From the NCBI RefSeq assembly GCF_037042905.1, contig NC_087245.1, forward strand, positions 23,562,001 through 23,626,000: a DNA stretch of 64,000 bases, written 5' to 3'. Both the position numbers and the translations under genes were made by a program. A model generated the notes under the pieces. The model was not told the DNA's origin, ran no database searches, and worked only from the letters and a program-made list of their open reading frames with translations. The stretch comes from Lytechinus pictus (Eukaryota). Below are positions 9,679 through 60,000 of this stretch, piece by piece (the first letter of the stretch is position 1; each line of letters begins with the position of its first letter).

Positions 9679-11215
9679 TTCCACCATAAATGAATTTGGT
9701 ACAGATCATTCATGATACCCAACCGACTTTGTAAATTTTATTCATTCATTTGAACTCTCCTTAGGTTCCACAGATTAGTAGAGCCCATGTTGTTGCTAGA
9801 GCTCATTGTACCAGAGGCTACCGGCAAACTAACTGCAAGTTTATTTATTTGAATGGCTCATTTTATTCACGAATTTATGTCTTCAATAATCGTGAAAATA
9901 GAGAGATAACCTGTTCACGATAGATCAATTGCGATACAACATACCTGTTATGTAATTAATCAGTTGTTGTGGCCTAGTACCTGTTCATAATTGAGTGACA
10001 AGATGATGTCACTGTAGAATGGAGGGGGATCTTAAGCCTTTATTGAGGTGTTCTATAAGATCAAAATATATATATTTCAACGAGATATTGAAAAGTCTGC
10101 CCTATTTTATTTTGAAGGGGGTGGGAATATAGGTTAGTCTTTCAACGTGTTCCACGGTCTCGCATATATTCATCAAATCCACTGGACTTTGATGGGATAG
10201 TAGGCCTATATAAAATTATATGTATACATAGGCTAATCTGGAACAGATACTTTGCTAGTTTCGAGTACAAGGAAAGTCGCGAGCTTCCGACCAGTCTAGG
10301 TTGAATGTACTGTGAAGATCCGGAGTAGGAAACGTTCATGACTCCTTAAAATGGCCTTCGCCAAGACAAGAAAACCAAACCAGGTTGTCATTGAATTGAA
10401 TTCAATAGTAATGCAAATGCAATAGTAACCACAGCACTACAATCATGATATATAGCTGCAAGGCTAATTATTTTCGCTGATCGGTGAAGACCCCTCCCCC
10501 TCCCGCGCGTTACTTCCGCGCTTAATGGATTTTTTTTTTTTTTTTTGGGGGGGGGAGGGGGAGGTTGGGTGGAATACAGGTATACACAGTGTAATTGGAC
10601 ATCTTATCGAGGAATTTAGCTACCTTAAATAATCTACAAAATTCTATGTTTATCTCCTCTCACTAAATATTTTACTTCCCTTTCCGTTTCCAAATACGGA
10701 ATAGTATCTCCAAGTGCAGCTGACTAAATAAAAAAAAACGAGCCATATCCATTGTATCCCTAATAATACGCATCATGTTAATTTTAGCATAATCGTCACA
10801 TCATTTAGTCACAGTAGAAACAATCAAATGTTGGTACATAGTATCTCGAAGTGCCTGGCTGGATATTCATCTATCAAGTAATATTATCAGGGAAATTGTC
10901 AATATTAATTTGGTACTGTCTGGAACAATTATCTAGTAGGCCTTTGTGAAAAAAATTGAAAATAGAACGAAGTCATCTAGCGTCGAATAGTCTATGAATA
11001 TAAAAAATCTATAATTTTTATTCAATTAAAATGTATATCATTTTTTTGGTCTTGAAAAATGTTTTTACGAGAAGTGGCGTCGGAAGTTTACTATACTGAA
11101 ATTATAGAATGAAGCTAGCATTTCGAATTAATTTGATTCTGTCTGTATGGGATTTAAAACGTGTTTCTGACCTACTGAAGAGCCCCATGGTCAACTCCCA
11201 ACTCACTGGTTTTAT

Positions 11216-11238
11216 CATAGAGCTGTAATAGCTCTATG
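11216..11238. mobile_element. 23-bp palindromic micro-insertion with 7-bp TSD (P-superfamily footprint-like)
   Basis: GTTTTAT|CATAGAGCTGTAATAGCTCTATG|GTTTTAT. Confidence 0.7.
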
Positions 11239-12462
11239 GTTTTATATAGGTTTACAGGAATCACGCACTCTCCCATTTATCAGTCTGTTTTGTGTTATAC
11301 TCTGAAGAATGGAGAATATCTGCAGGGACCGACACTGTTCTTGTGCAAGAGTGAGCGTATACTCCATCTCATTTCTACCCCCTGAGTTTATTATGCTATT
11401 GTATTTTACCCCCTAAACAATATTGAGTATCATTACGGCATGGAGGTATGGGCTACCTCTTTGATTGTAGAAAAGATTTTACAAAGAATAGATGTACTTA
11501 GATGTTTTCGAAGGAAAACAATGGCAGTTTGACCTCTTTCCGAGATCTTGTGTTCCTTGGATCTCACGGGTAAAAACATGTGGTCATCAATACAGTACAT
11601 TGAAAGAAAAAAGTTCAAACGTGTTTCGAGCCATCCCTCTTGATGCAATGCTTTCAACATGGATGGAGGTTGAATGGGAGAACGTGTCACCAAGGAATGC
11701 AATTGCCAAAATGTAAAATGAGAGGACTTTCGGAAGGATTTTGGCCAGAGGATTGGGAATTCAAAGGTTGCAGGCAGTGCCCTATTCTTGATAAGAGTCG
11801 TGCGCGGTTGTTGAAAAATGAAGCCCTAAAAATGCACTTTAAAATGGTCAGTGGTCCTGACAGGGATGTCGTACAACTTAGGCAGTTAGGGAGACCTTGT
11901 CTGGTATATCGTTAAAATTGGCCAACACTGTATACCTTCAACCTATATAATATGACTGGTGTGAGAAACAATGAGTACAGGTAGCGAGGCCCATTCCCAC
12001 TACTTGTCCAGCAGAATGGTGGATTTGTCATTGCTCATCCCATGCAGTTATAAATATAATGTAGGCCTACGGGTTAAGGCCAATTTATAAAATAAGTATG
12101 GAGATTGTCGGCCTCGGTCCATGATAATTATTACTGAATGCATATTTCATCTATTAAAAGGGTCTATATAGGAATACCACACATAAGAGGAACGTAATAT
12201 CCCAGGCCACTAGGCCAGTATACGACCGCGGTCAGTGTCATGTACATGTACATTGTAATGACTTCAAGTGACCTTTCACTTGTAACCTCATATTTCTATC
12301 GTGACCCGGCTTTAAAGTCATGATTGACAGTTTTGTGGGTCATTTTTTATTTTCCGATGAATTTAAGGCAGTAGCCATAGTTTATCTGTTGTTTATCTAT
12401 TTTTCGGGGCGGACAGGGGGCAGTTATCGTCAGTCCTATGAATAATGTTTTTTTCCTTTTTA

Positions 12463-24099: not shown

Positions 24100-24303
24100 A
24101 TTCAGCCATGGCGTAATTTCCTTCAGCAAGAAACTGATCCACAATGTGCTGCACTCAACCCAGGTGAGGTAAATGGGTACCGGTAGGAAGTAATTCCTTA
24201 AAAAGCTGTGTGCGCTATGAACGCCTAGCTTAGCCGGGTAATATAGGAGCGCCTTGAGCACCTAACAAGGTGGATATGTGCGCAATATAAATACCCTATA
24301 TTA
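24100..24303 (+). mobile_element. SINE, 5'-truncated (central domain + L2-like tail)
   Basis: CCTTCAGCAAG..CACTCAACCCAGGTGAGGTAAATGGGTACCGG..GAGCGCCTTGAGCACC..GCGCAATATAAAT; near-identical reverse copy at 26090-26296. Confidence 0.7.
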
Positions 24304-24464
24304 AATATAAACACTGCTTTATGGTGTTCGAGTACTTAGTACAACATTCAAACCAGTGAAATGTGCAAGAAACTAAACATGCTACCCGATCAAGGGGCCG
24401 TTTCCCCACACCCAGTGCCATCAAATCTGTATCCTTCAGCTTGCTTCGGTCATGACAAACCCTG

Positions 24465-24735
24465 GGCCCCGTCTTACAAAGAGTTGCGATTGATCCGATC
24501 AATCGTAACTATGGACGGCCAGCAACGTCAACATATAAAATGCTTGTTTGTTCAAAACAAATTCTAGATATGAATGTATATCCATAAATTCAGTGCTTTC
24601 TTGACAATTTGGTGTGTTCTTCTTTGTTAACAAAGGACATTTTAAAAGTTTCCTGTAGAAAAAATTATGACACTGATGGATTTCCATAGAGTTACGATTG
24701 ATTGGATTAATCATAACTCTTTGTAAGACGGGGCC
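24465..24735. mobile_element. PIF/Harbinger-type MITE
   Basis: CTG|GGCCCCGTCTTACAAAGAGTT...AACTCTTTGTAAGACGGGGCC|CTG; 3-bp TSD. Confidence 0.8.
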
Positions 24736-25080
24736 CTGGTGTTCCACTTGGAAGTCTGTTCGGTCCCCTGTTATTCCAGTTGTTTCTCCTCTGTAATTAC
24801 ATCGTCCATCACAACAGTCTTCGTGCCTGTTAACATTTATTACCATTCTTTTAAACACATGAAATCTTTACTAACCTTTTTAGAAATCCACATTTCTCAA
24901 GAAGAACAAAATCACAAAGCAGTAACTTCTTCATAAATTGCATATGGCGGCCTTCCCGCACAAAGGTCGTTAACGCGCACTGCACGTCGCCTTGCCGCGA
25001 AAGGGCCGTTATCGTGCAGTGAACACTAAGCGCTAACGGTTTTTGTGCGGGAAGACGAAGTAAATACTATGTATCCACTT

Positions 25081-25082
<2 letters not shown>

Positions 25083-25114
<32 letters not shown>

Positions 25115-25122
25115 TTCGGGAA

Positions 25123-25177
<55 letters not shown>

Positions 25178-25195
25178 GTATGTATATAATATATT
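25083..25195. repeat. (TA)n microsatellites
   Basis: Direct reading; another (TA)n lies at 39898-39957 in the LINE 3' UTR. Confidence 0.9.
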
Positions 25196-25303
25196 TGTTT
25201 GTTTTATAGGGTATTCATGTTTCTATGTAATACTGAATGATGATATTTAGGGAATATTGGATGGCCTTGAGTGGGATGCGAAGAAATATTGTACGAGCCG
25301 AAG

Positions 25304-25783
25304 AACAATATTTCTACGCATCCCACGAAAATTGTTCATCCAATATTATTATTATTATTTAGATACCCCCACAAAGCCAAACATAAGGTAATGAAGCAAA
25401 AAAATATTCTTAGTAAATGTGTTTATACATTCTCTCTTATCTTATTGAAAAAAAAAAATCAGCGAGTAACAATATTTCTACGCATCCCACGAAAATTGTT
25501 CATCCAATATTATTATTGTTATTTAGATACCCCCACAAAGCCAAACATAAAGTAATGAAGCAAAAAAATATTCTTAGTAAATGTGTTTATACATTCTCTC
25601 TTATCTTATTGAAAAAAAAAATCAGCGAGTAACAATATTTCTACGCATCCCACTAAAATTGTTCATCCAATATTATTATTGTTATTTAGATACCCCCACA
25701 AAGCCAAACATAAAGTAATGAAGCAAAAAAATATTCTTAGTAAATGTGTTTATACATTCTCTCTTATCTTATTGAAAAAAAAA
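25304..25783. repeat. Three near-identical ~164-bp tandem repeats
   Basis: Units start AACAATATTTCTACGCATCCCAC at 25304, 25468 and 25631. Confidence 0.95.
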
Positions 25784-26089
25784 TGATGTAGAGCATATTA
25801 AGATTTTTTTATTTTGGAATTCCCTCCATAAAGATATTCAACAGGCCCCCTCCATCCACTCCTTTAAGAGAAAACTAAAAATATTTATGTTACTGTCTTG
25901 CCAAAGTAATTAATTAGTTTGTATATTTTTAGTATTATCCGATCTAAGGACGCTATTAAGTCACACTCTCTTTGATCCACGTTTGCACTCTCCTTGTCCC
26001 CCCTCACTCTCTGTATTTTCACAGAAATCGAAGAAAACTGGCGGTTTATGTTGCGTTAGTATCACTAGCTGCTTAATTAAACATTGGCT

Positions 26090-26296
26090 ATTAATAATAA
26101 TAATAATAATAATATAGGGTATTTATATTGCGCACATATCCACCTTGTTAGGTGCTCAAGGCGCTCCTATATTACCCGGCTAAGCTAGGCGTTCATAGCG
26201 CACACAGCTTTTTAAGGAATTACTTCCTACCGGTACCCATTTACCTCACCTGGGTTGAGTGCAGCACACTGTGGATCAGTTTCTTGCTGAAGGAAA
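26090..26296 (-). mobile_element. SINE, 5'-truncated, with (TAT)n tail
   Basis: Reverse complement of 24117-24303 (one substitution seen), followed by a (TAA)n/(TAT)n tail at 26090-26113. Confidence 0.7.
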
Positions 26297-28649: not shown

Positions 28650-29951
28650 TTAGTAAGAATTCGTCCAACTAAGTTCTCGACCAAGAACGTTTGCAAGCTC
28701 TCTATTAAATGGTCTGAAATGATCTTGTAGCTTTATCTTTAAGTCATCACCGACTTCTTCATGTGGTCTCCCCTTTCCTGATGCCATACACATCTCAAAA
28801 GGATCTCGAAGGCAGATAAATCCTTTCGTCTCGTTGAAATAAAACTTTGTATCATCAAAGTAGCGATCGATCCCCAGAAATCCCTCGACCTGTTGGAGAC
28901 CTGTGGTGGGATCCTGCGCAAATTCTTCCCCGTCCAAGATAAGGATCTGTTCTCTAGGATAGATGTTGTACCACTGTGTTAGGTATTTGACATAGCGGCT
29001 CGTATCAAGGAGACGATTAGCAACCTTGAGGCTTCCATTTGTAAAAAGGACCGACTCACGAAAGGTAGGTTTGATTTCATATTGTGGAGCTGAAGAGTGT
29101 TCATTAACCTTTGTAGCGCCTGGATGCATCGCAATAATCGCTAGCTCATGCATATAGTTTGACACTGCACGGTTTATGGGTTCACGGAGAATTATGATGA
29201 ACTTGATATCAGGCATTTTCTTCCGTAGTCTTTCAGCAACTGCTATCCTGTTGTAATAGCCAGCCGTTTTCTCCATAGCAATCTGATCGGGGGTAGAATA
29301 CGGCATCACGTTCTTATATTGGTCGAATTCATTTAATTTATGATGATTTGCAAATTTCAATTCTTTATCTGGAAATGTAATCGATGGGTGGATTTCCAAA
29401 TATGCTTTGAGAGCCGTTGTGCCACTCTTCATTGCACCTGGTATGATAGCATCGGGTCTGCGTTTCTTGCATCCCCTTGCTCTTCGAATATCTGGACTCA
29501 ATAATTTCCTTTCAGGTGGATAAACATTGACGGCTTTCTTACAGTAGCATCCGCGATCAATGTGACCAACCTCACACACAGGCTCGTTCCCAGGTTGGAG
29601 GTACATGAGGCTACTCACGGTTATAGGCGATTTGGCAGTTCTGGTCGGCTTATGCGCTTCGAGAACTCGGATGGCATTGTGCTCACGTGTGCAAGCCAAC
29701 TGAGTAAAGTTGGTACCGTATTGAACCACGTGATGAACTTCCTGCTGATGTCCATCCGACGCCAGGTACGTTGTGAAAAAACATAGCATCAGGAATGCGG
29801 TAATAACAGCGACGGTTACTTTTGATCGTCCGGTTAGTGAAACCTTCGCCATTGCCGTCATGTTGTGAAAAAAATCAAACTGCAGAAATGGAATGCCTTC
29901 TTGCTGGCGTCTCACTTCGATCAGACCTGTTTTATGAATCCATTTTGGCAT
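28650..29951 (-). CDS. HS3ST1-like Golgi sulfotransferase, paralog 2 (433 aa from first ATG; alternative start MTAMAK at 29861)
   Basis: Intact ORF. Signal anchor VTVAVITAFLMLCFFTTYL; PGAMKSGTTAL; KELKFAN; MEKTAGYY; ILREPINRAVSNY; FYFNETKGFICL..CM..KGRPH..LSW. Minus-strand splice acceptor (tttctttatctgaacAG) at 29956-29957, 4 nt before the ATG. Start codon uncertain. Confidence 0.9.
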   Translation of the reverse strand: MPKWIHKTGLIEVRRQQEGIPFLQFDFFHNMTAMAKVSLTGRSKVTVAVITAFLMLCFFTTYLASDGHQQEVHHVVQYGTNFTQLACTREHNAIRVLEAHKPTRTAKSPITVSSLMYLQPGNEPVCEVGHIDRGCYCKKAVNVYPPERKLLSPDIRRARGCKKRRPDAIIPGAMKSGTTALKAYLEIHPSITFPDKELKFANHHKLNEFDQYKNVMPYSTPDQIAMEKTAGYYNRIAVAERLRKKMPDIKFIIILREPINRAVSNYMHELAIIAMHPGATKVNEHSSAPQYEIKPTFRESVLFTNGSLKVANRLLDTSRYVKYLTQWYNIYPREQILILDGEEFAQDPTTGLQQVEGFLGIDRYFDDTKFYFNETKGFICLRDPFEMCMASGKGRPHEEVGDDLKIKLQDHFRPFNRELANVLGRELSWTNSY

Positions 29952-31531
29952 AAGGCTGTTCAGATAAAGAAATTAGAAATTATTAGGCGTTAACTTAAAA
30001 AGATATATTTGGTGCTCTATCATCAATTTCAATTTGAAAGTATAAAATGGATCTCTTTTTTTAAAGCAGTAATGATAGTAATGTCAACTGATATTCAGAT
30101 CTTATAGACATAGACGAATGGTATTTATGTTCAAAAGGATTATAAAATCGGTGACGTTGTCACAACATTTGGATTGGCTGTCTGAGATCTCGACTTTCCA
30201 ATATGTATATCTATGTACTCCGCGGCCCACCTTCACGACTAGCTGCGCATGCACAATATTTTTTTAATGATATCTGGATTGAATTGTTATTACTTTGACA
30301 GAACGTTCATGACCAGTCACCCCCCCCCTATCCATTAGGCCCTACCATGACACCATTGCCACAACATGATATTGCTTTATTATACCATAATGCTAATGAA
30401 AGTTCTGAAGCGAATGGAGCTCATAATTGCATTTATACGCATGACAACGACTACACATTAACAAGTTGGATCAAATTCGTTTTTTATGCGCTTCATCCAT
30501 GATTATTTAGTTTAATGGTTTATCTCAGCATGAAACATATCGGAATTACTATACGGGGCATATCCTGGCAATGCAATTAATAACGGTTAATGGGAAATCC
30601 AAGGCCACTGTGTGCAGAAACTGACGTTCGAAGGGTCTTCCAGGGCTCATAATTCCAATTTGCTCAAACTTCCATTATTATATAGTTTTATAAAGTTTTT
30701 ATGATTTTTCTCTTTAATATACAATTCAACTGGTTCAAGGGTTCATTCTCCTGTGAAACCTGCACTGCTTATCAAACACTATAAGATGCTTTTCTTGTAT
30801 AAATCAACATACTTACCGGTACATATTTTCAAGTTTGGAATTCAAAATAAGTACAAAACACAAAAAATGACAATGAAAAAGGGCAAAGCATATAACAATA
30901 TCAATAAACAGTGATTCGAAAAGAAGGGGGAAAAGGGAATCTGTTGTTCTTTTAGATACCCATCTTAATCATTGGTACCAAAAATGCTTAGAATATCAAG
31001 CTTTCAGATCAGAATATAAAGAAATTTCAGCTCGCTCTCGGCACTCGCACTATCTGTGTATTGAGACATGTATCCTCCTCATGAGTCACTACAAACAGGT
31101 ACCATTTTCCTATTTTCAGGTCAGTATACTAAAAAAATTCAGCTCGAGCTTCGTGCTCGCATTAGTTTCTTTCTCATGAGTCATATATATATATGTATAT
31201 ATATATGTGGGTGAGTGTGTTTGGGTGAGTTTGTTTGCTTTGTGTGGTCGAGCGCCTTTGGAACGTTGATTCGTGATTTTGCCCCCCAATCTGAAAAATG
31301 GATCGACGCCCCTGCTTACAACGGATAGAAAAAGAGGGAGTTACAAGAGCTGATTCGCATCGCTATCGAGCACAACAAATAACGCAGTCACAGACCAGGA
31401 ATCAGACAATTATATTACTCCCTGAAAGGGCCTAAAGCTCAGCTCACACTATGCGATTCGTTGCGATCCGAATTTCAAAGAAATTGTTATAACATTATTT
31501 TGATACGAGCATTCCAACCAATAAAATCTAA

Positions 31532-33017
31532 TGCTAAGTTCACACCAACAGCGCTTTGATGGCGCTTTAAAGCGGCGTGCAAAGCGGCGGCAAATAGAAA
31601 AACTCTGTTGAAAACAGAGTTTTCCACAAAGTTTTCCAGAAAGTTTTTTCTATTTTTTTTTATTTATTATATTTCATTTTTTAATTTTATAATGTTTTAT
31701 ATTTTATTATCTTTGTTTTATTTTCTCTGTTACAATAATGGTTATTTATCTCACATATAAAACTGATTTTCTGACTTTTTTATTAATTAGTAAGAAAATC
31801 AATTTGTAATAATTTGTAATAATCAATTTAACAAAAAATTGCGTATGTTAAAGATCTTTTATCGCACATATCTAAATTTCAAATTCTGCAACTTGATTCC
31901 TTTAGATTTTCACTCCTGATTTACAATTATAGTAGTATTATCTGATTTTTCATGGGTAAGAAATCAACAACAATAACATCAATAATAATAATAACATCTT
32001 CACAAGTACACATAATAAAAAAATCATTTTAAACTTATATTAAAAATAAACAGAGTGTGCATATAGGAGAATGTTCTTATTTCCAGACACAAAAGTCTTT
32101 ATCTTCATCATCTGCTTCTGACGATATCTGAGCCACTCCTTTCTTAACTCAATCAGGAAGTACCACCCCAGCCATTCTTTGTTGCCAGTCAACAGCACCC
32201 ACTGGAGAGACGAAGTATTCTCTGAGATGATCTTTCTGATGTCTGGCATCCACAGTGGCGAGGTTCCTCCTTGCAGGTGGTTGCGGAACATCTTCCCAGT
32301 GAGGTCCATCTCTCCAGGCCCCTGGTGCGAAGTTGTGCTCTTCATCTTCGTGGTCCACCGCATTGGCTGCCAGCGCCACCCTCTTCCTCAGCAGGTTGTG
32401 GAGCACCACAGCAGTCTCCACCAAATCTCTGACGTTATCTACCTTCTGTTCCAGTGTTCCCAACAGGCACCGGAACCTGTACGTGGCCATGATGCCAAGG
32501 GCATTCTCCACCACTCTCCTCTCCCTTGAGATCTTGTAGTTGCAGATCCTCTGTTCATCTGTCATCCCTATTCTACTGTATGGCTTCATCATATACATGT
32601 ACCTCTTCAGGGCAAAAGCATCGTCACCCAGGATGAAGTAGGGAATATCAGGCTGATTTTCTCCAGGGATAGGGCATGGTGGGGGCAGCCCTATGGACCC
32701 ATCTTCTAGGCATTCGAAGAGCTCAGAGTCTGTGAATATCTGGGAGTCAGACATGTGTCCTTTACCTCCCAGCTCAATCCAGATGAACTTGTACTCTGCA
32801 TCTACCAATGCCAGCAGTGGTATAGAGAAGAACCCCTTGTAGTTGTGGTAGAGCCTGCCTGTGTTTGCTGGCTTCTTAATGGCTATGTGCTTTCCATCCA
32901 AGGCACCAATTGCATGGGGGGGGGGATTCCATCTCTGTTCAAACTGCTGGGCAAGGGTGCTCCATGCTTCACGGGTGGTAGGTATGTTGAAGACCTCATC
33001 TTTATACGCCTCTACAA
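31532..33017 (-). mobile_element. Harbinger element remnant (one terminus plus nuclease gene)
   Basis: TAA|TGCTAAGTTCACACC at 31529-31546 resembles Harbinger termini (TAA target, GCTxxGTTCACAC); the nuclease gene points toward it. The other end is missing. Confidence 0.55.
32149..33017 (-). pseudogene. PIF/Harbinger transposase (HARBI1-type DDE nuclease), 5'-truncated
   Basis: Open frame of ~290 codons: [62 protein letters not shown]. The N-terminus is cut off at 33017/33018 by a hAT MITE terminus. Confidence 0.9.
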
Positions 33018-33406
33018 CAGCGGCGTAACAGGGGCCGGTGGCTAGGGGGGGGGGGACAAGAGCAAAAATTTTCCCGGTCATATCATGGTATGAACAGGCG
33101 TAATGGTGTGAGGAGACGATTTTGAGAGGGCCAGATATTGCGTATCGGGCAGGATTTATCTTATAAAAAAATTGCGAGCGAGCGAAGCGAGCGAGCAATT
33201 TTTTTTTACAATTTTAATACAAAATCAAATTTTGTGATAGATTTTGACATGATATCCAGAGAATAATATATTTCATTCTTCTCTCTTTCCATTCCTTTAT
33301 TTTGTGGTCTGTACCCCACTGTGAACAGGATTCTTTGCGGCAGTAGCGTGAAGAGTACAAAAAACGAGGGGAGGGGCACAGAATGGCGCATGTGCTAAAA
33401 AGCTGC

Positions 33407-36694: not shown

Positions 36695-39600
36695 ATGATT
36701 ACGAACATTTCCAACGATTCCAATGATGTTATTAATGATATTGGTACTAATAATGATGATGAACTTAAAATTGATTTAGATCCAAATGATGGGGCTTCGA
36801 GTGTCATATCCTCAAACTACTACACTCAGGCTTCAGCCAAAAACATTTTCAAAGGTTTACCTTCTTCCTGCTTGTCTATTTTCCATCTAAATATCAGAAG
36901 CCTTAACAAGAATTTTGAAACATTTCGTTCTATTTTTAGATAACTCAGGTTTTCCCCAAAATACAGTAATAGGTTTAGCTGAGACATGGCTGTAAGATGA
37001 ATATATCAATATGAATGCACTCCCAGGTTATGATATACTTACAAATAATCGTGTTGATAAAATTGGTGGTGGTGTTGCAATTTTTGTGCCGAGTCAATTT
37101 GAGTATGTTATTATTGAAGACATGAATTTAATGAATGAAACTGCAGAAACTTTATTTATTGAAATTAGTGATCGTGATAACAGAAAAACTGTATTGGGAG
37201 TTGTTTATAAGCCTCCTCGCAGCAATAGTGCTGATTTTCTAGACACTTTAAATAATTTACTACATTATCATTCTGTTCAAAACAAAAGATGTATCATAAT
37301 GGGAGACTTTAACTATGACCTGTTAGCGAGTGATACTAATATTTTTGCAAATGACTTTTTAGAGACATTCCTTTCTGCCTCCTTTTTGCCACTCATTTCT
37401 AGACCCACTAGAATCACTAATACTTACGCAACTCTGATTGACAATTTTTTCTCCAATATACGTTCAGAATTTAAAGCTGGTATAATTATCTCAGACATGT
37501 CTGATCATTTCCCAATTTTCATGTACTGTTCTAATCAATATCAGCCAAACAAACTTCCCGATTATGTATCTAAGAGGCGTGTGTATAGTGATATAAATAT
37601 ATCTCGTTTGAAACAGAGTTTAGAAGAAGAATCTTGGGATGATGTATTTAGTACAGAATGTGTTGACGAGTCCTACGAAACATTTATTGATATCTTCATG
37701 AGTCATGTTAATGAAAATATTCCTTTTGCAAAGCCCAAGTCCAAAAATTATAAAAGATCACCCAGACTGCCTTGGATAACGAATTCAATTCTTCGTTCGA
37801 TAAATAGAAAAAAAAAATCGATTATACTATACATATATATCAATATTAACTGAGAATACTCGGAGCCAATATACTAATTATAAGAATATACTAACAGGGG
37901 TCATCCGTACTGCTAAAAAGGCATATTACCATGATCAATTTAATCAATGCAAGAATGATCTTTAAAAAAATGGAAATTGATCAATTCTACCATCAATAAT
38001 GGACCAAAGTTTTCAATGATAACTAAGCTTATGCATAATGATTCTATTATTGAAGATAAAGTTCAGATGGCAAATATTTTCAACAATTACTTTTCACAAG
38101 TTGGATTTAAGCTCTCTAGAAGTATACCAACAAACTCCCATTCATTTCATCAATATCTGGGGGATAGAAATCAAAGTTCTATGTTTTTCTCTCCTACGAA
38201 CGCACAGGAGATAATCAAAATTATATCTAGCCTAAAATCAAATAAAAGTGCAGGATTTGATAACATTGATAACAACCTTTTACAGAAAACTATGAATTAT
38301 ATAATTGACCCTCTTATTTATATATTCAATTTGTCATTATCATCGGGAAATATTCCAAAATCAATGAAAATTTCTAAGATAAAACCAGTCTTCAAAAAAG
38401 GTGATATTTCTTTATCAAGTAACTACAGACCGATTTCATTGCTTACAAACTTATCTAAAATTCTTGAAAAATTGGTTCACATACGAACCATATGTTTTTT
38501 TTTTAAAGCACAACATCCTATCCGATACTCAATTTGGTTTCCGGGAAAAGAGTAGCACTTCCCACGCAATACGTTCTTTAGTTCAAACAGTTGCCAAAGC
38601 TTATGACAAGTCTTCGAATACGATTGCTTTGTTTTTAGATTTTTCAAAAGCATTCGATACAGTTGATCATAACATTCTCCTTTATAAACTTTCTCATTAT
38701 GGAATAAGAGGGGAACCACTAAAGTGGTTCAAGAATTATCTAACCGGGCGTTCACAGTTCGTTTCACTTGATTGTAATATTTCTGAACGTAAACCTGTCC
38801 TTTGTGGAGTTCCACAGGGCAGCATTCTAGGCCCACTTTTGTTCATTACTTATATAAATGATATTGATATGTCATCTAGATTGCTTCAATTTATACTTTT
38901 CGCTGATGACTCTAATATATTTCTGTCGCACCCCGACCCAGAGCAATTGACGCAAATATTCAATGACGAACTCAAAACTGTTTCTAATTGGATAACAGCT
39001 AACAAACTCTCTCTTAACCTAGAAAAAACTAGCTACATGCTATTTAGCAACAAGATTACGACTGTACCAAAAGATGTAATTTTAAATGATACTGTCATTC
39101 TAAGAGTGCGATCTACTAAATTTTTGGGACTGATCATTGACGAAAAACTTTCTTGGAAAGCACATATTGATAATATTTGTAAAATCATTGCTCGCAACAT
39201 TGGTGTCATTAGAAAAATAAGTTACTTCTTACCCCATTATATTTTGTTATCATTGTATTCAACGTTAATTTTACCTTACTTGAATTACGGAGTTGTTGCG
39301 TGGGGTAATGCAGCGAATTCTCAAATTAATAGACTTTTTATTTTACAAAAAAGAGTGATTCGTATTATTAGTCATGCAGAATTCAGGGCACATACAAATA
39401 TTCTGTTTTTGAGAAATAAAGTCTCGAAGGTTAAAGATTTATATTCTTTTCAACTCGGACAGTTAATGTACAAGTTTATCAATAAACAATTACCGTTACC
39501 TTTTAATAATATGTTTGTAAAAAATAATACAATTCATAAGCACTTCACTCGCCAGGCGAGTTCCTTTCATTTACCTCTGAATAGAACATCGTTTGCACAG

Positions 39601-39720
39601 AAGACATTTGTTTTTACTGGTCCAAAATTATGGAATTCTTTTTCAAAGGATATTATACAATGTAATTCAATACAAAATTTCAAAGGAAAACTTAAAAAAT
39701 ATCTTCTGAATTCATATTAG
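36695..39720 (+). pseudogene. LINE ORF2 (APE endonuclease + reverse transcriptase) with stops and frameshifts
   Basis: EN motifs HLNIRSL, ETWL, IIMGDFN, SDHFPIF. RT motifs YRPISLL, QFGFR, FLDFSKAFDTVDH, GVPQGSILGPLLF, FADD, KFLG. Split over ORFs 36695-36943, 37011-37853, 37977-38555 and 38401-39720. Confidence 0.92.
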
Positions 39721-41851: not shown

Positions 41852-42345
41852 AGCCCCGGTAGCTTATTTGCATAAAATTTAGCAAGCTTATAGCACAATG
41901 TTGTATGCAGTCCATCTTTCTTCCCGCTCTTTACTTTCAATCCGCGGCAGCCCGGTCGTGTTATTAAGTTTTTTTCTTGTCCCATTTCTTTGTTTTCCAA
42001 TTTAGCTTTTGACTAATTCCATTCTACCTTCGTTTCCCGCTATTGTTTGCCACTTTGTCATCTTTTGATTTATTTCCCATCATGCTATTGCATTACATAG
42101 GCCTATTTCAGAATGATTTGTTCTTTCTCAAATGTTCTTTTTTCGTTCCTTTTCCTGCTTAATTCCTTCCTTTTTCATTAAATTTTTGTTTTCTTCGTTT
42201 TTTTCTTCACTTTTTCCTTTCTTTTTCCTCTTTTCCTTTTCCCCTTTCCTTCTCCTTTCCCTTTCTTCTCCCTCTCTTGTCTCTTTTTCCCGTTTTTTTT
42301 ATTTTCCCGGTGAAATCCGCCCCCCCCCCGCCTGTTACGCCACTG

Positions 42346-42465
42346 CTACGAGGGACCTGGTAATGAGGATAATGCCTTACCAAAGGGCTCTAGCGCACCA
42401 AGTGGGAATCGAACCCGATCACCGTAATCCGAAACCCCCGCTCTGCCGACTGAGCTATCGCGCCT
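42346..42465 (-). mobile_element. tRNA-derived SINE head, 3'-truncated
   Basis: Minus strand GGCGCGATAGCTCAGTCGGCAGAGC (A box) ... GGGTTCGATTCCCAC (B box), then non-tRNA body CCTTTGGTAAGGCATT. No complete cloverleaf; cut off at the hAT element A terminus. Confidence 0.75.
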
Positions 42466-42630
42466 ACATGTAGCTTCACCAATTATTGTGCGTCGACACA
42501 AACCGAGTCTGTGCCCCAGAACATATTCATATCCTTATTAATACGATAATGAATGCAACCACTGTCTGTGTCAATTGACAGAGAAGCATTTTACTTATGA
42601 GTGCACTGCGGAAAAAACACAGGCCAGCTC

Positions 42631-44699
42631 CGGGTGTCTACAAAACGAAGACTTAAGACCTAAGACCCAAGACCCCATATATATACTACAAAAAAAACTA
42701 CAAAACTAAGACCCAACCATAGAGATGTATACATCTCTATGGACCCAACCAACTAATACTGTTGTTGTTGTTGTTATCTTGGGTTTTAAGGCGCGTATCA
42801 TTCAGATATGAATATTTATCACAGGATGCAGCCTAGTCTGTACTACAGACCCAGTTATTGAGAAACACTTCAAACATACCACCTATATCCTATGTATTTG
42901 AATCAAAATTACAAAACTAAGACCCTGTGTAATGTTCATTGGTATACAGCCTAGTCTGTACTCCAGACCCATTTATTGAGAAACACTTCAAACCTACCAC
43001 CTATATCCCATGTATTCGAGACAAAACTAAGACCCAACCAACTACAAAACTAAGACCCTGTGTAATATGCATTGGTATACAGCCTAGTCTGTACTCCAGA
43101 CCCAGTTATTGAGAAAAACTTCAAACCTACCACCTATATCCTATGCACTTGATACAAAACTACAAAACTAAGACCCAACGAACTACAAAACTAAGACCAT
43201 GTGTAATACTCATAGGATGCAGCCTAGTCTGTACTCTAGACCCAGTTATTGAGAAACAATTAAAACCTCTCGCCTGGATCTTATGTACCCGAGACAAAAC
43301 GAGACCCAATCAGTTACATAGCTAGGAGGACCCTGTGTAATATTCATTGGTATGCAGCTTAGTCTGTGTCCCAGACCTAGATATTTTGAAAAAGTTCAAA
43401 CCTACCATTATTCTAATCTCTATTTATTCTTTGGTACTTGCCGCATCCGTACCATATACTGAATTTTATTTTTATATATCTTGGGTATGTGCGTTTTAAC
43501 AAGCCTTTTTATGGCTTTTTTGTGCATGCCCAATTCCATTCATTATTTTATTCATATATATTTTTATAATTATGTGCCAACCATAATTTTATCATTACCA
43601 CTATTTGTTTCAGTTATGTTCTGTTAATACCTTTGCTTTGTTTTATGCTATTTATATTTTCTTTGTGTATATATTATTTTGTTCTTATTTTGTTCTTTTT
43701 AATGAATTTGTTAATAAATACTGTATTGAAAAAAATTGAAATCGAATCCTTCATCCTAGTCTAAACTTTAGAAAAAACTAGATAAGACCACATAAAAAAG
43801 GACATTGTTACTCAGAGATATATTCTTGGTCTGCTTTACATCCAAGACAATAATACTATGGCTATAGAGCAAGTTTATTTATTTATTTATTATTCATTTA
43901 AATTTGTTTGTAACAAGGGAATCTATATCGACCGAAAAGCAGAAATGCATAACACTTTACAAAATATTATATAAAAATACATTCAACATCCAATCAAAAA
44001 GATCAATTCACACAAATTCTCTACATCATAAGAAACAGCAAAACACCTAGATATTGTTGTTTATCATGGTGAGGGCGCATGTGTTAAATTATGACAAGCA
44101 TCTCCATCACGAATAACTCAAATTTAAAATACATGCGGCCGATTTTGAATAATCAGAAAATAGCAGGGAAGGGAGGAAAAATAAGACTAGGCTGCACGCC
44201 AATGTGTATTACACAGGGTATTAGTTTTATAGTTTTGTATCAAGTACATAGGATATAGGTTGTAGATTTGAAGTGTTCCTCAATAACTGGGTCTGGAGTA
44301 CAGACTAGGCTGCATCCTATGAGTATTACACGGGGTCTTAGTTTTGTAGTTCGTTGGGTCTTAGATTTGTAGTTTTGTATTACGTACATAGGATATAGGT
44401 TGTAGATTTGAAGTGTTTGTCAGTAACTGAGTCTAGAGTACAGACTAGGCTGCATACAAATGAATATTACACAGTGTCTTAGTTTTGTAGTTGGTTGGGT
44501 CTTAGTTTTGTAGTTTTGTATTAAGTACATAGGATAAAGGTTGTAGATTTGAAGTGTTTCTCAATAACTGAGTCTGGAGTACAGACTAGGCTGCATACAA
44601 ATGAATATTACACAGGGTCCTACTTTTGTAGTTTTTTTTTGTAGTATATATATGAGATCTTGGGTCTTATGTCTTAGGTCTTCGTTTTGTAGACACCCG
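42631..44699. mobile_element. Foldback element: long inverted arms built of ~120-130-bp tandem repeats
   Basis: Ends CGGGTGTCTACAAAACGAAGAC / GTCTTCGTTTTGTAGACACCCG. TSD GCCAGCTC (8 bp), or GGCCAGCTCC (10 bp) if the ends are GGG/CCC. Arms ~42631-43410 and ~44184-44699; non-coding centre. Confidence 0.88.
42718..42741. mobile_element. 24-bp palindromic micro-insertion with 8-bp TSD (P-superfamily footprint-like)
   Basis: GACCCAAC|CATAGAGATGTATACATCTCTATG|GACCCAAC; a sibling repeat unit at ~43031 shows the empty site. Confidence 0.8.
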
Positions 44700-45149
44700 G
44701 CCAGCTCCATAGGCTATATGGAACCACGTACAGTACAAAGCATTAGCCTCCACGTCATATTTTCCACTCAATTTTAAAATTGCTATCAAAATAATAAATA
44801 TCTCTTCAAGTGTAAGTGTAAGTCTCAAAATCTCCTTCTACAGCATCTATGTATGAAGGAGTCTTGTAAAGCATTAAATGAATGAACATTATACATTTAA
44901 ATGTTTTTCGTTTTTTTAATATTAAAAAAGAAACATTACCGAATGACCTACATACATTAAAGTATAATTCCTGAAGTTAAAACTTCAATTTGCCACCGTG
45001 GTTACGTACCCGTGTGGAACAGTGGCGTCACGAGCAAAAAAAAAATAGAGGGGCAAAATATGCCCCCCCCCCCTACCACAAGAGAAAATGTGCGTATTTT
45101 CACGCAATGACAGTTGGAAATGTCACAAATAGATGAAACTCTGATATAT

Positions 45150-49256: not shown

Positions 49257-50483
49257 TCAATAAGCATTCGTCCAACTAAGCTCTCGTCCAAGGACCTTTA
49301 CAAGCTGTCTATTAAATGGTCTAAAGTGATCTTGTAGCTTTTTCATCAGGTCATCATTGACGAACTCATGTTGCCTCCCCTTGTTACTTCGCATACACAT
49401 CTCAAAAGGATCTCGAAGGCAGATAAATCCTTTCGTCTCGTTGAAATAAAACTTTGTATCATCAAAGTAGCGATCGATCCCCAGAAATCCCTCGACCTGT
49501 TGGAGAACTGGGGTGGGATCCATAATAAACTCTTCCCCGTCCAAGATCAGGATGTGTTCTCTCGGAAAGATGTTGTACCACTGTGTTAGGTATTTGACAT
49601 AGCGGCTCGAATCAAGGAGACGATTAGCAACCTTGAGACCTCCATTCGGAAAAAGGACCGACTCGCGAAAGGTGGATTTAATCTCATACTGTGGAGCACT
49701 AGTATTTTCCTGGATATGTATCTCATGATATTCATTACGAGCTACCATATGCATATAGTTTGACACTGCACGGTTTATGGGTTCACGGAGAATGATGATG
49801 AACTTGGTATCAGGCATTGCCTTCCGTAGTCTTTTTGCGATTGGTATTCTGATGAAATACCCAGCAGTTTTTTCTATAGCAATCTGATCGGGGGTGGAAT
49901 ATGGCATGACATCCGCGTATGCATCGTACTCATATGTAAGATGATGATTGGCGAAATGCAGTTCTGTTAGTGGGAATGAAATAGCTGGATGGAGTTCCAG
50001 ATATGCCTTGAGAGCCGTGGTGCCACTCTTCATGGAGCCTGGAATGATGACATCGGGTCTGCGTTTCTTGCATCCTCTCATCCTTAGAATTTCTTCGTTC
50101 AAAAGTTTGATTTCTGGTGGATATGTATTCAACCCCTTCCGGCAGTAGCATCCACGATCAATATCACCCTCCTCGCACACATCACCAAGCTCTTCCCTGA
50201 GCTGCATGTACATGGGGCTTTTTGGAGATTTGATCCCTTTGATCGTGCCTGGGGCAGAAGCAGAAGCTTTGAAGGCATACTGCGGCTGATGAACCCGGGT
50301 AGTGCTATTGGCATTATGCTCAGAAGGGCACTTTTGGAACCTTGCACAGGATTTAACCATCGACAGGAACCGCAATTCCACTGTGAAGATTCCTAGCGTC
50401 AAGAAACCACTGATGGCCACCACCAGCAGGATTGTAATGGCTGTAGTTACCGATGGTCTTCTGACGTGCATTATCATGGTCAT
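49257..50483 (-). CDS. HS3ST1-like Golgi sulfotransferase, paralog 3 (408 aa), close paralog of paralog 2
   Basis: Intact ORF. Signal anchor AITILLVVAISGFLTLGIFTV; PGSMKSGTTAL; TELHFAN; IEKTAGYF; ILREPINRAVSNY; FYFNETKGFICLRDPFEMCM..KGRQH. Candidate minus-strand acceptor AG at 50549-50550. Confidence 0.9.
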   Translation of the reverse strand: MTMIMHVRRPSVTTAITILLVVAISGFLTLGIFTVELRFLSMVKSCARFQKCPSEHNANSTTRVHQPQYAFKASASAPGTIKGIKSPKSPMYMQLREELGDVCEEGDIDRGCYCRKGLNTYPPEIKLLNEEILRMRGCKKRRPDVIIPGSMKSGTTALKAYLELHPAISFPLTELHFANHHLTYEYDAYADVMPYSTPDQIAIEKTAGYFIRIPIAKRLRKAMPDTKFIIILREPINRAVSNYMHMVARNEYHEIHIQENTSAPQYEIKSTFRESVLFPNGGLKVANRLLDSSRYVKYLTQWYNIFPREHILILDGEEFIMDPTPVLQQVEGFLGIDRYFDDTKFYFNETKGFICLRDPFEMCMRSNKGRQHEFVNDDLMKKLQDHFRPFNRQLVKVLGRELSWTNAY

Positions 50484-50759
50484 GATGGTTGAGACAGAGA
50501 GCTTTCTAAATACCTTGGCTTCGTATATTGACCTGCCACCACAAGAGTCTGCATTGTGTAGATAAAAGATACAGGGTATTTTTTAATTACGAGAGAATAA
50601 GACTACACGGCACATCGGGGCATATCAAATAAATTGACGAATTTGTTCGTTTATGGAATGAATTGTATCGACTGTTCCACCCTATTATACGAGGGATTCG
50701 TTATCAAAATACATGTTTAATGGAATTTATTATGAAAATAAAGTAATTTGTGTAAGGAG

Positions 50760-52020: not shown

Positions 52021-52325
52021 TCGAACAATACAAACTCTCTCACACACATATTATATATATAAATATACACTACTCAAAAAAAGTTAAGGACCACTTTTTA
52101 AAACGTACATAAAGATTTTATACAAGGTGTTTTATTTCTGGAAATACCTCAGTACAACTGTCCTAAATGTCCTTAAACACGCTGTAATCAATTTCACGCA
52201 TGGGTGGTTTCAGTTGTTGCACAATGTCTCTCGCATCACTGCACATCCTGAAAAGTGGGCCCCGAGGGGTATCAGCTACCGACATGAAGTGGTAAAAACG
52301 AATGTCTGAGTGTCTTTCAGGCAGT

Positions 52326-52756
52326 TCAGTAACGAGTGTGACCACCTCCTGCAGCAATAACGGCTTCACAGCGCTGTCTCATGGAGCTGATGAGGCGATT
52401 GATGTCTCTGACGTCCAGTGCATCCCATGCAGCCTCCAGAGCCACACCCAGCTGCTGCAGTCCAAGTGGATGGGCTTCGAGCTGCTCGAGACTCCTCCCC
52501 ATCATGTCCCAGACGTGCTCTATCGGGTTTAAGTCCGGGGACCTCGCTGGCCACTCCATACGCTCAATCCCCTGGCCCTCAAGGAACTCGGTCACCACCC
52601 TAGCTCGGTGGGCACGGGCATTGTCATCCATGAAAATGATGTTTTGTCCCACATTTTCTGCAAATGGCACCACTATAGGTTCAAGGACCTCATCCCTGTA
52701 CCTCACTCCTGTCATTGCTCCCCCTGGGACCACGTAGAGACGAGTACGGTTGGCGT
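52326..52756 (-). pseudogene. Inverted duplicate of the transposase 3' end (D2, E and C-terminus) inside the left TIR
   Basis: The ORF track 52326..52775(-) matches the transposase C-terminus from ANRTRLY to GGHTRY except one D/Y difference; it has no DNA-binding domain and no first catalytic Asp. Confidence 0.9.
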
Positions 52757-52798
52757 CCGTCTTTAGTCTGTACAATCAACAACTTGCCTACAACAGCA

Positions 52799-53827
52799 AT
52801 GCCAAGACACCACCTAAGTGAAACAGATGTAGCCAGAGCCCTAGGGATGCTGGAAGCTGGCCTCAGTCAGCGAAGAGTAGCCAGAATGATGGGCGTGTCA
52901 CACAGTGTCATTAGCAGAGCAAATCAAAGACACCGAGAGACAGGGCTATACTCCGAGAGACCCCGCAGTGGCCGACCAGTTTCGACAACCCCTAGAGATG
53001 ATCGCTACTTGACGAATCTCAGCCTCCGCAACCGCTTTCACAGTGCACGCCGCCTCAACAATGACTTCGCTGCAGCAACTGGAGTGATTGTTTCCACTCA
53101 AACAATCCGTAACCGACTTCACAGAGCCAATATGCATGCCAGACGGCCAGCTCAGTGTGTCCCACTCACCCCTGCTCACAGAAGAATTCGTCTCAACTGG
53201 GCCCGGGAGCATGTCAGATGGACCAGACAGCAATGGCGTAGAGTTCTGTTCACAGATGAGAGCAGATTTTCCCTTGACCACAATGATGGACGTTCGAGAG
53301 TCTGGAGGCGACCAGGAGAGAGATTTGCAGACCCCTGTATTGCAGAACATGACCGTTATGGGGGAGGCAGCGTCATGGTGTGGGGAGGCATCACCTACGC
53401 CAACCGTACTCGTCTCTACGTGGTCCCAGGGGGAGCAATGACAGGAGTGAGGTACAGGGATGAGGTCCTTGAACCTATAGTGGTGCCATTTGCAGAAAAT
53501 GTGGGACAAAACATCATTTTCATGGATGACAATGCCCGTGCCCACCGAGCTAGGGTGGTGACCGAGTTCCTTGAGGGCCAGGGGATTGAGCGTATGGAGT
53601 GGCCAGCGAGGTCCCCGGACTTAAACCCGATAGAGCACGTCTGGGACATGATGGGGAGGAGTCTCGAGCAGCTCGAAGCCCATCCACTTGGACTGCAGCA
53701 GCTGGGTGTGGCTCTGGAGGCTGCATGGGATGCACTGGACGTCAGATACATCAATCGCCTCATCAGCTCCATGAGACAGCGCTGTGAAGCCGTTATTGCT
53801 GCAGGAGGTGGTCACACTCGTTACTGA
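52799..53827 (+). CDS. Tc1-like transposase, DD34E, 342 aa, apparently intact
   Basis: ATG 52799 (MPRHHLSE). Paired-like HTH with RSGRP linker; VLFTDESRF (D1); VMVWGGI; FMDDNARAH (D2); WPARSPDLNPIEHVW (E, 34 residues after D2); ends GGHTRY. No stops or frameshifts. Confidence 0.95.
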   Translation: MPRHHLSETDVARALGMLEAGLSQRRVARMMGVSHSVISRANQRHRETGLYSERPRSGRPVSTTPRDDRYLTNLSLRNRFHSARRLNNDFAAATGVIVSTQTIRNRLHRANMHARRPAQCVPLTPAHRRIRLNWAREHVRWTRQQWRRVLFTDESRFSLDHNDGRSRVWRRPGERFADPCIAEHDRYGGGSVMVWGGITYANRTRLYVVPGGAMTGVRYRDEVLEPIVVPFAENVGQNIIFMDDNARAHRARVVTEFLEGQGIERMEWPARSPDLNPIEHVWDMMGRSLEQLEAHPLGLQQLGVALEAAWDALDVRYINRLISSMRQRCEAVIAAGGGHTRY

Positions 53828-54299
53828 ACTGCCTGAAAGACACTCAGACATTCGTTTTTACCACTTCATGTCGGTAGCTGATACCCCTCGGGGCCCACTT
53901 TTCAGGATGTGCAGTGATGCGAGAGACATTGTGCAACAACTGAAGCCACCCATGCGTGAAATTGATTACAGCGTGTTTAAGGACATTTAGGACAGTTGTA
54001 CTGAGGTATTTCCAGAAATAAAACACCTTGTATAAAATCTTTATGTACGTTTTAAAAAGTGGTCCTTAACTTTTTTTGAGTAGTGTATATATATACTCGG
54101 TAGATATTCCACGTGTTGAAGTAATATTAAGAGAAACAAGGTTGAAACTTTCATGCTTATTGATTAACATTATATATTGTGACGTCGAAATGACGTTTTA
54201 TTATTTATTATGATCTATGTTTTTTAGCCTAATGCGTCTCCATGACAATACGCCTAGTTACACAAGGCAATTGTACATGGAAACGCGGTACTTTTGTCA

Positions 54300-57059: not shown

Positions 57060-60000
57060 TAGAGTCACCTATCATAAGCCGAGCAGACGAGAACCTGAAT
57101 TTGGTGTCATGTGTTAAACCCACTGATCTCTCCGAAGATCAGTGGTTAAACCCGAGTAACCCACACAGTCACCTATCATGATAGGCCGAGCAGACGAGAA
57201 CCTGAATTTGGTGTGTTATACTCGAGTAGCCTACACAGTCACCTATCATGATAAGCCGAGCAGACGAGAGGCTGAACTTGGTGCGTTAAACCCGAGTTGT
57301 AGTCTATTCTACGCAGACCCGCATGTTGCTAGAGTCGGTTCTCATGGAGGTTTTAAGAAAAATAACTTGAAAACAATGAACTGAATCTTGGGAATTTTAA
57401 AGTGACCTAAGCAAAAGAGATTCCAGATTTTACTTTTTACTCTCCACTAGCGGAAGGAACAATTTAAAGAATAATTTGTTTTAAACCTAATAAACGAATG
57501 AAATAAATAAAAACAGCAAACTTTCCGAGATATTCTGGTAAATCATGTGAACAAAAGTGAAAATTACAATAGCATTCAATTTAACAGGAATGATGTCAAT
57601 TAGGAGTACTATAAAATAAAAAGTTTGTAGTTTTAAACCTGTAGGATATAATATATTCTTACCCAACACCCCCCCCCCCAAAAAAAAAAAATCATGATGA
57701 AATAAATGAATATGAGTGCGTGCCAGCATTGGATTTCAATCTAAAACAAAGGTAATTATAGTTTCTCTTGCATAGGAAAAATTGCGATTTGAATTTAACC
57801 TGTTTTGAGCAAAGGAAATGTTTTCGGACCAAATCCTGTCATGTTTTTTTTTAATGCTAACGTACGAGCGCTAGGCCACACAGTCACCTATCATGATAAG
57901 CCGAGCAGACGAGGACTTCAATTTGGTGAGTTAAACCCGAGTTGTAGTCTATTCTACACAGACCCGCAAGTTGCTAGAGCCGGTGCTAGAGTCGGTTCTC
58001 ATAGAGGTTTTAAGGAACATAACTTGGAAACAATTGAAGACGATCTTTCCAATCAGCGTTTTTTTGCTCTTAGCATTGTTTATTCCTCACAAGATTGGTC
58101 TTATTATATAGATAAAAGTTTAAATTTTCTGAACAGTAAAATAAAATGCGCATTTAACATATTTTGGTAACCGATATTTAGCTTAGAAACAAATAAAAAA
58201 ATTCAAGAAATATATGTGAATAAACAAAGCATATTTTCACTTAGAAATCACACTTGCGTCACATTAATATTATAATCAATAAAAAGCATAGACATTCTTC
58301 TTCACGACTGAACAAAAATTATGAAATTTCATTACGTAGCAAAGTCAAGGAACCACAAAAAATACGGCAATATCCATCGCGAAATGATTTGAATTGCAGT
58401 TAAATTGCCGAAGCATTATGAGGCAACAGCGGCGAACGGACTTTCATACATCATTAAAAACCCGGAGTTGAGAGGCAAACGGTCTGTGGCCAAATCTGTA
58501 ATGCCATTGTTTTGATGAGTGCGGGGACTTTGGTTAGAACCTCTGACTCTGTGATTTTTTTTTAATTATTATATTCCTACCCAGCTCTTTTTTCTCTTTT
58601 TATTTTCATGTGAGATTCTATTCAGACCTGCATTTATTAAATCTTACTTCTTAATTGCTGCTTTTGATTTTCAAGTTCTTGATTAGATTCTACACTTATT
58701 TGGGCAGGGATGGGAGGGGTAGAGGATGAGTTAAAAGTCTAGTCCACAACAAATTAAAAATTGTTTGAATAGAGTAATTTCCCTTGTTTTTTGTGTTTTT
58801 TACTCAAAACAGTTATATCCACAAAACAATGATATGCAAATTAGAGTTGATTATGTCACATCACATTCATTTCAATTTTTTGGCATTTTATTTTTTGTTA
58901 TTTAAATTTGAATCAAAGTTTTTATGAAATTTTCTGCAATATTTTATTATTTTTCTTTAAATTCAAATGAACTTTTGGTTGGGTGGACTTCTCCTTTACT
59001 CTTCTCATGGAATGCATAGCAATATTTATCCAGAAACAAAATTGTCTTAAAATATGCAAACCAGTAATTGGACACATGTTCACTTTCCTTTCATCTAGGC
59101 CACTTCCTCACATCCACCGGGCTTACAGTCTTATAACAAAAATGAACCATCGCACAACTGCACACAACATTCAGAGTGCTTCACAATAAATATTTCAATT
59201 TTGTTCATACATGCAATTATTATTGTGGAAAACAAATAAAAGGCTTACCCATATTCAAATGCCGTTTAAAAGGTCAAATTTATTATACCTTTCGAGAAAA
59301 AAATTGTGACGATATAATTATACATGACACTTAACTTTCAGCAATCACCACGTTAGATAACTGATACAGAGTTGCTAACAAAATCTAACTATTGGGCATT
59401 GCAAGAAACTTATGTTCAATTGCAAATCAAGCGTAAGTCTCAAATTCAAATACAAGCGTAATAAGTCGAGTTGCAAGTGCAATTCAACTACATGTTTCTG
59501 TTTAATCAAAGGACTTACCCTTGATTTGGGACGTGTGATTGAGTAGAAAATTTCTCAAAAAATGCCCGAATTACATTAAAATTTTTCTTTCGTTTTAAAT
59601 TGTTGGAGTTTTTCAATAAACACTGACTCACTCACTGACTTCTGGAGTGGAGCAACACAACGACGACTCTCCAGTGGACAAAATCGGTCTTTACAGTTCA
59701 CAATTCAATAAAAACGGGTAAAGTAACACAGTTCTGGTTCACTTTTAGTCGGAAGTTGTCGAAAACAGAAATCGGATACCACATTACATGAAGAAAACGT
59801 TAAATTCGAAAGATATTGAACAGGTCAGTAAGGTGATGCACAGAGGGATGAGCTCGTTGATTGTGTGACGTCATTATTTTCGACTGTTTCGACTGCGCGA
59901 TTGTCGGTCTGGGGGCGGCTGGGGGGCTGAGAAGGGTCTCTAATAATTTCATTTCTTGCATTTCCACGACATCTATAAGACTTTTTAGTGACATTTTCGT

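Follow-up and report, generated by a model that had tools for sequence, protein, structure and literature searches.

Short CA..TG hairpins between target-site duplications: probable excision scars of P-like transposons

The window analysed here, a stretch of 64,000 nucleotides of AT-rich eukaryotic DNA, carries microsatellites, three sulfotransferase genes and remnants of Harbinger, Tc1 and LINE elements. The sulfotransferase genes are long uninterrupted frames (15873-17069, 28650-29972 and 49257-50582), and the DNA of the second and third is 81% alike, a local gene expansion. A Harbinger-type DDE_Tnp_4 fragment and a frameshifted endonuclease/reverse-transcriptase LINE lie at 32149-33213 and 36996-39720, respectively. 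In addition, a Tc1-like element (52058-54095) has 699-bp inverted arms that are 99.6% identical; its left end repeats the 3' part of the transposase gene in mirror image, next to a 382-aa frame that seems intact. Another element of about 2.1 kb (24150-26265) has perfect inverted ends of more than 118 bp, which enclose an AT microsatellite and a 163-bp tandem repeat. Scattered in the same window are three very short hairpins, listed here together with the repeat that hosts the first of them and an empty counterpart of its target site.

42710..42717, no strand assigned: left target-site duplication of site 1 (8 bp), GACCCAAC
42718..42741, no strand assigned: palindrome of site 1, 24 bp, read as two element tips joined at a central TATA, CATAGAGATGTATACATCTCTATG
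42742..42749, no strand assigned: right target-site duplication of site 1 (8 bp), GACCCAAC
43031..43038, plus strand: empty sibling target site of site 1, a single GACCCAAC in the same context
42632..44698, no strand assigned: 2067-bp foldback element hosting site 1, GGG..CCC ends, 10-bp duplication GGCCAGCTCC
11209..11245, no strand assigned: site 2, hairpin with duplications; the hairpin is 11216-11238, 23 bp, 9-bp arms, CATAGAGCT
57113..57152, no strand assigned: site 3, hairpin with duplications; the hairpin is 57121-57144, 24 bp, 9-bp arms, CACTGATCT

The hairpins are insertions with duplications. All three run from CA to TG, measure 23-24 bp and sit flush between exact duplications of 7-8 bp, and every copy is different from the other two. 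The original prediction described site 1 as a 24-bp perfect palindrome with an 8-bp duplication, which both direct reading and a scan of the whole window confirm; with its 12+12 arms it is the only perfect palindrome of the three. Two further CA..TG cases of nearly equal length had also been proposed, and both are present, but their arms measure 9 bp and the duplication at site 2 is GTTTTAT, 7 bp and not 8. Site 3 has an exact 8-bp duplication, GTTAAACC, and its end sequence, CACTGATC, differs from those of sites 1 and 2. The scan covered inserts of 10-80 bp and, with thresholds chosen after the three sites were known (arms of at least 9 bp, exact duplication of at least 7 bp), exactly three of eight loose matches passed, namely sites 1, 2 and 3. 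By comparison, each of 20 order-3 Markov simulations contained 0 such hairpins. Elsewhere in the window, the word CATAGAG is about as frequent as chance predicts (8 occurrences, 5.9 expected), and Rfam had no match within 42000-45000.

The foldback element, which has site 1 in its left arm, is a non-coding unit with subterminal tandem units of ~133-141 bp on both arms and an exact 10-bp duplication; from its end rules we take it to be Mutator-like. It showed no transposase, and Pfam was blank for its five short internal ORFs. The tandem units provide the empty site that had been noted at ~43031: a single GACCCAAC is found there and in three other siblings, at 43172 and, on the minus strand, at 44501 and 44360. 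Site 3 sits in a 70-bp tandem repeat, two sibling units of which (57215 and 57285) are without the hairpin. The empty sites of sites 1 and 3 are thus paralogous, not allelic. Relative to these siblings, five extra bases, CATGT (57108-57112), stand directly before the left duplication of site 3, and they resemble TACATGTA scars. For site 2, two of four sequencing runs (X8 and X9, possibly drawn from the stock that was assembled) span the site, and both carry the hairpin unchanged; across 10810-12134 their contigs show five other letters and eight gap letters in 1319. Neither an empty nor a full-element allele occurs among the pieces listed from runs X8, X9, X4 and X6, and none of those listed from X4 and X6 (organism A, about 92% alike) crosses the site. 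The bin 11180-11307 has extra depth in X8, X4 and X6, not in X9; it stems from records outside the pieces listed.

From 6 bp past site 1 (42756-42813) the host unit no longer follows its siblings; it lacks about 20 bp of theirs and contains about 58 bp that match nothing else in the window. This departure may be a repair by-product of an excision at site 1 or a separate event. It shows local repair or rearrangement and to that extent favours an origin with no transposon involved, in which template switching or polymerase-theta fill-in made a hairpin and a local duplication. Such an origin, or plain chance, is nevertheless very improbable for the hairpins as a group. They are not copies of their flanks, the simulations produced none, and several eukaryotic assemblies with no relation to one another have the same end sequence, over 11-14 nt, again beside 7-8-bp duplications.

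This recurrence was found with a pattern derived from the site 1 and site 2 ends (CATAGAGMTRT, a gap, AYAKCTCTATG; total length 22-52 bp), which gave 96 matches in 95 stretches of metagenome contigs. Of the 96, 14 have an exact duplication of 7-8 bp immediately outside their CA and TG ends; four other matches lay too close to a contig end for the duplication test. The 14 represent 13 sites, one of them occurring in two assemblies, and the duplication is 8 bp in 13 matches and 7 bp in one. When the boundaries are shifted by -4 to +5 bp, the flush duplications drop to 0, and in the control collections none of the matches to the same pattern has a duplication (0 of 44 from prokaryote genomes, 0 of 14 from viral contigs). 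A single assembly, Ga0194135, supplies 10 of the 14 matches, and an eleventh there has one mismatch in its duplication. Three of its contigs encode LSM, HECT or RVT_1 domains (5 of 17 ORFs tested had a match), and therefore their source is eukaryotic and probably an animal. Judged by sequence, CATAGAG-type ends are those of a widespread eukaryotic element type. The remnants measure 29, 36, 37, 40 (five times), 42, 45 and 46 bp in Ga0194135 and 26, 29 and 34 bp in the remaining three assemblies or sites. Since the same end motif leaves 26-46 bp in these eukaryotic contigs, 24 bp is no general limit, and the sharp upper limit that had been expected near this length fails. Hairpins with other CA..TG ends also occur among the fetched loci, namely one of 37 bp (L128:3380-3416, end CAGAGTC..) and one of 39 bp (L146:2328-2366, end CATGGAC..), each with an exact 7-bp duplication; the CAGAGTC end is common to L130, L168 and L196 of the same record series.

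CA..TG termini are a rule of the P superfamily, and all three window sites have them. The duplications of 8, 7 and 8 bp are of the lengths that this superfamily makes, and both duplications are kept, with both putative element tips joined between them, in the window and at the metagenome sites. Together with an anatomy like that of fly footprints, these features make a P-type footprint, as originally predicted, the best-supported reading, although the 12-nt cut attached to it holds only as a lower limit. We conclude that the window hairpins are probably end-joined excision scars of cut-and-paste transposons that worked like the P element; membership of the parents in the P superfamily is likely, if unproven. 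The duplication by itself is not exclusive, since hobo also makes 8 bp, and P cannot be told from hAT by a GT..AC target preference (PMC3276498, available portion). Footprints of hAT or Tc1/mariner elements do not fit the 23-24 bp of non-flank sequence that remain at the sites: in hAT excision the hairpins arise on the flanking DNA, and Tc1/mariner excision leaves 2-3 nt behind (PMC3878927, in the part available), so neither leaves 12-nt tips.

On the footprint reading, an element would first have inserted, duplicating 7 or 8 bp, the duplication itself being observed. By analogy with fly P chemistry, excision would then nick one strand at the element end and the other some way inside, so that each flank would keep a 3' single-stranded tail of the element tip. 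End joining would pair the tails at a short self-complementary word (AT, TA, TATA or CG) or join them blunt, and trimming and filling would leave the duplication, the left tip, the right tip and the duplication again, as a presumably inert scar. A tail length of 12 nt would be the minimum; 13-14 nt is more likely, and the tails may have been longer still. At least two parent families, probably three, would be recorded in the window.

One may argue that the 23-46-bp hairpins are themselves ultra-short MITEs, moved by a helper transposase and making new duplications. In particular, Ga0194135 has five 40-mers that show 0-3 differences and occupy five unrelated sites, where each is flanked by a separate exact 8-bp duplication; slippage in the 40-mer could have given rise to the 29- and 46-bp forms. 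That no parent turned up in the window or in 21 metagenome loci also fits. (A recombinant origin of the 40-mers, from a mixture of ends, was rejected: read in reverse, L175 matches L139 except for one difference.) We consider such mobility quite unlikely. No two window copies are the same, and flies also produce one and the same scar repeatedly, in 14 of 68 junctions in the accessible table of PMC2895639. Moreover, the available text on the fly P transposase places the cut of one strand 17 nt in from each end and has the enzyme bind internal 10-bp sites (PMC7776569); a 24-mer has no such sites, which counts against its moving by itself, and cuts of this depth would leave no duplex in it. P-related MITEs of Anopheles, by their names about 205-2450 bp, keep about 100 bp of the parent ends (PMC1562414).

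If the hairpins are footprints, their lengths bear on the depth of the cut. The ~12-nt overhang originally deduced for site 1 is only a lower limit, since the palindrome equally fits 12+12 nt joined blunt, 13 nt from each tip with an AT join, 14 nt from each with a TATA join, or longer tips trimmed back to AT or TATA. Three element ends at L161 and L191 are identical to site 1 over the first 14 nt, and 23-nt tips taken from these two loci reproduce site 1 exactly by AT/TATA joins. In flies, according to the portion of PMC2895639 available, the 68 junctions formed from 17-nt tails in Rad51 mutants included 14 perfect palindromes of 30 bp that had paired at AT and 5 remnants of 32 bp with a TA join, both duplications being kept. 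Half the scar length therefore underestimates the cut, and 12 nt is a floor: as scars, the window hairpins would require tails of at least 12 nt and are compatible with 17 nt. By our count from Table 1 of the same source, the fly remnants span 4-44 bp, four being 25 bp and none 23-24 bp among the 68, so a broad length distribution, which had been named as grounds for rejecting the footprint reading, would not refute it. The occurrence of 23-24 bp at three sites of differing inner sequence (n = 3) leans to short tails of 12-14 nt. In Ga0194135, a single tip of 21-23 nt joined at ATAT predicts remnants of 29 and 40 bp, both of which are observed, and a 21-nt tail, worked by hand, also fits those of 42 bp (blunt), 45 bp (blunt plus 3) and 37 bp. 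If these 40-mers are footprints, their tails were about 20-23 nt, a deeper cut than that of the fly enzyme. It is thus conceivable, and we put it forward only tentatively, that natural scars record a P-type cut depth that is not fixed at the 17 nt of the fly but is about 12-14 nt in the window families and about 20-23 nt in the CATAGAG family of another eukaryote.

These lengths would not record the cut position if the scars arose by deletion down to the ends, either because gap repair templated by the sister chromatid stopped after a few bases of each end had been copied or because a longer element was deleted from tip to tip; the products would still be P-like remnants. In the accessible part of PMC2895639, wild-type flies mostly repair P excision by incomplete synthesis followed by end joining, and the junction table cited above derives from Rad51 mutants. 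In addition, the TATA word at nt 11-14 could set the length whatever the tail. Against this, three sites with different end sequences all measure 23-24 bp (n = 3), the window has no CA..TG element of intermediate size with these ends, and aborted copying should spread the lengths widely. We regard deletion of this kind as unlikely and retain direct joining of the excision tails as the preferred reading.

A parent element was sought in several ways. The end scan of the window returned 40 CA..TG pairs with arms of at least 5 bp and an exact 7-8-bp repeat, none of them a longer element with the same ends: three are the hairpins, and the other 37, long-range pairs with weak and unrelated ends, were judged, without a control, to be chance. 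No longer element with the same ends was found in the 21 fetched metagenome loci. Long tips had 0 matches in the viral and prokaryote collections, and a looser viral scan gave 0 among the 121 matches listed with a duplication of at least 7 bp; a 6-bp repeat at viral locus L115 was rejected as a duplication, being an extension of its own hairpin. No THAP/P domain was found in 56 of the window's 312 ORFs of at least 55 aa. A P-transposase motif picked out nine viral loci, of which eight encode short phage-methyltransferase-like proteins and one is unrelated, none being P-like. The literature yielded no account of natural P-type scars other than those of flies, nor any of CATAGAG ends, in a search that had repeat databases and most subscription journals outside its reach.

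P footprints are already known from flies, and the single locus has no evident function. The broader interest lies in the 17-nt staggered cut, the oddest feature of the P element, which the portions of the literature examined describe for the fly enzyme only. If the hairpins are footprints, this long-tail chemistry operates in other animals and would leave a countable class of insertions of 30-55 bp, too small for the usual repeat annotation, together with a testable prediction of the cut position of each family. Variable cut depth is the part worth pursuing: if the depth varies, cleavage geometry could be read from genomes across animals without biochemistry.

Among known systems, the fly P footprints have a similar anatomy. 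In the available parts of PMC2895639, they have an 8-bp duplication on both sides, CAT..ATG ends and tips joined at AT or TA, and their commonest long-tip product is also a perfect palindrome. They differ in their 17-nt tails and 30-bp mode (PMC2895639, PMC7776569), whereas the window scars are 23-24 bp, natural and fixed in an assembly. Within the P superfamily, the portions available state that P duplicates 8 bp, and 1360 and Galileo 7 bp (PMC3698922, PMC2775673, PMC3276498), and 1360/Hoppel and Galileo thus match site 2 in length of duplication. The site 2 target, GTTTTAT, agrees with the 1360 motif GTTNAAC at four of six defined positions; in what these sources offer, the likeness is one of duplication and target only, with no sequence link, and neither footprints nor cut positions were found there for either element. 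Among deuterostomes, zebrafish Pdre2/THAP9, a P-like element, has ends that start with CATA, a 13-bp inverted repeat and an 8-bp duplication, but its inverted repeat differs from the window ends from nt 5 on (PMC10983969, available part). The same text reports that excision by zebrafish THAP9 in fly cells gave larger flanking deletions, not neat scars, a result that counts against reading the window hairpins as footprints. Finally, as far as the accessible portions describe them, the P-related MITEs of Anopheles and BuT5 are likewise non-coding, with P-type ends and an 8-bp duplication (PMC1562414, PMC3698922), but they are hundreds of bases long and keep their subterminal binding regions, whereas the window units consist of the tips only.
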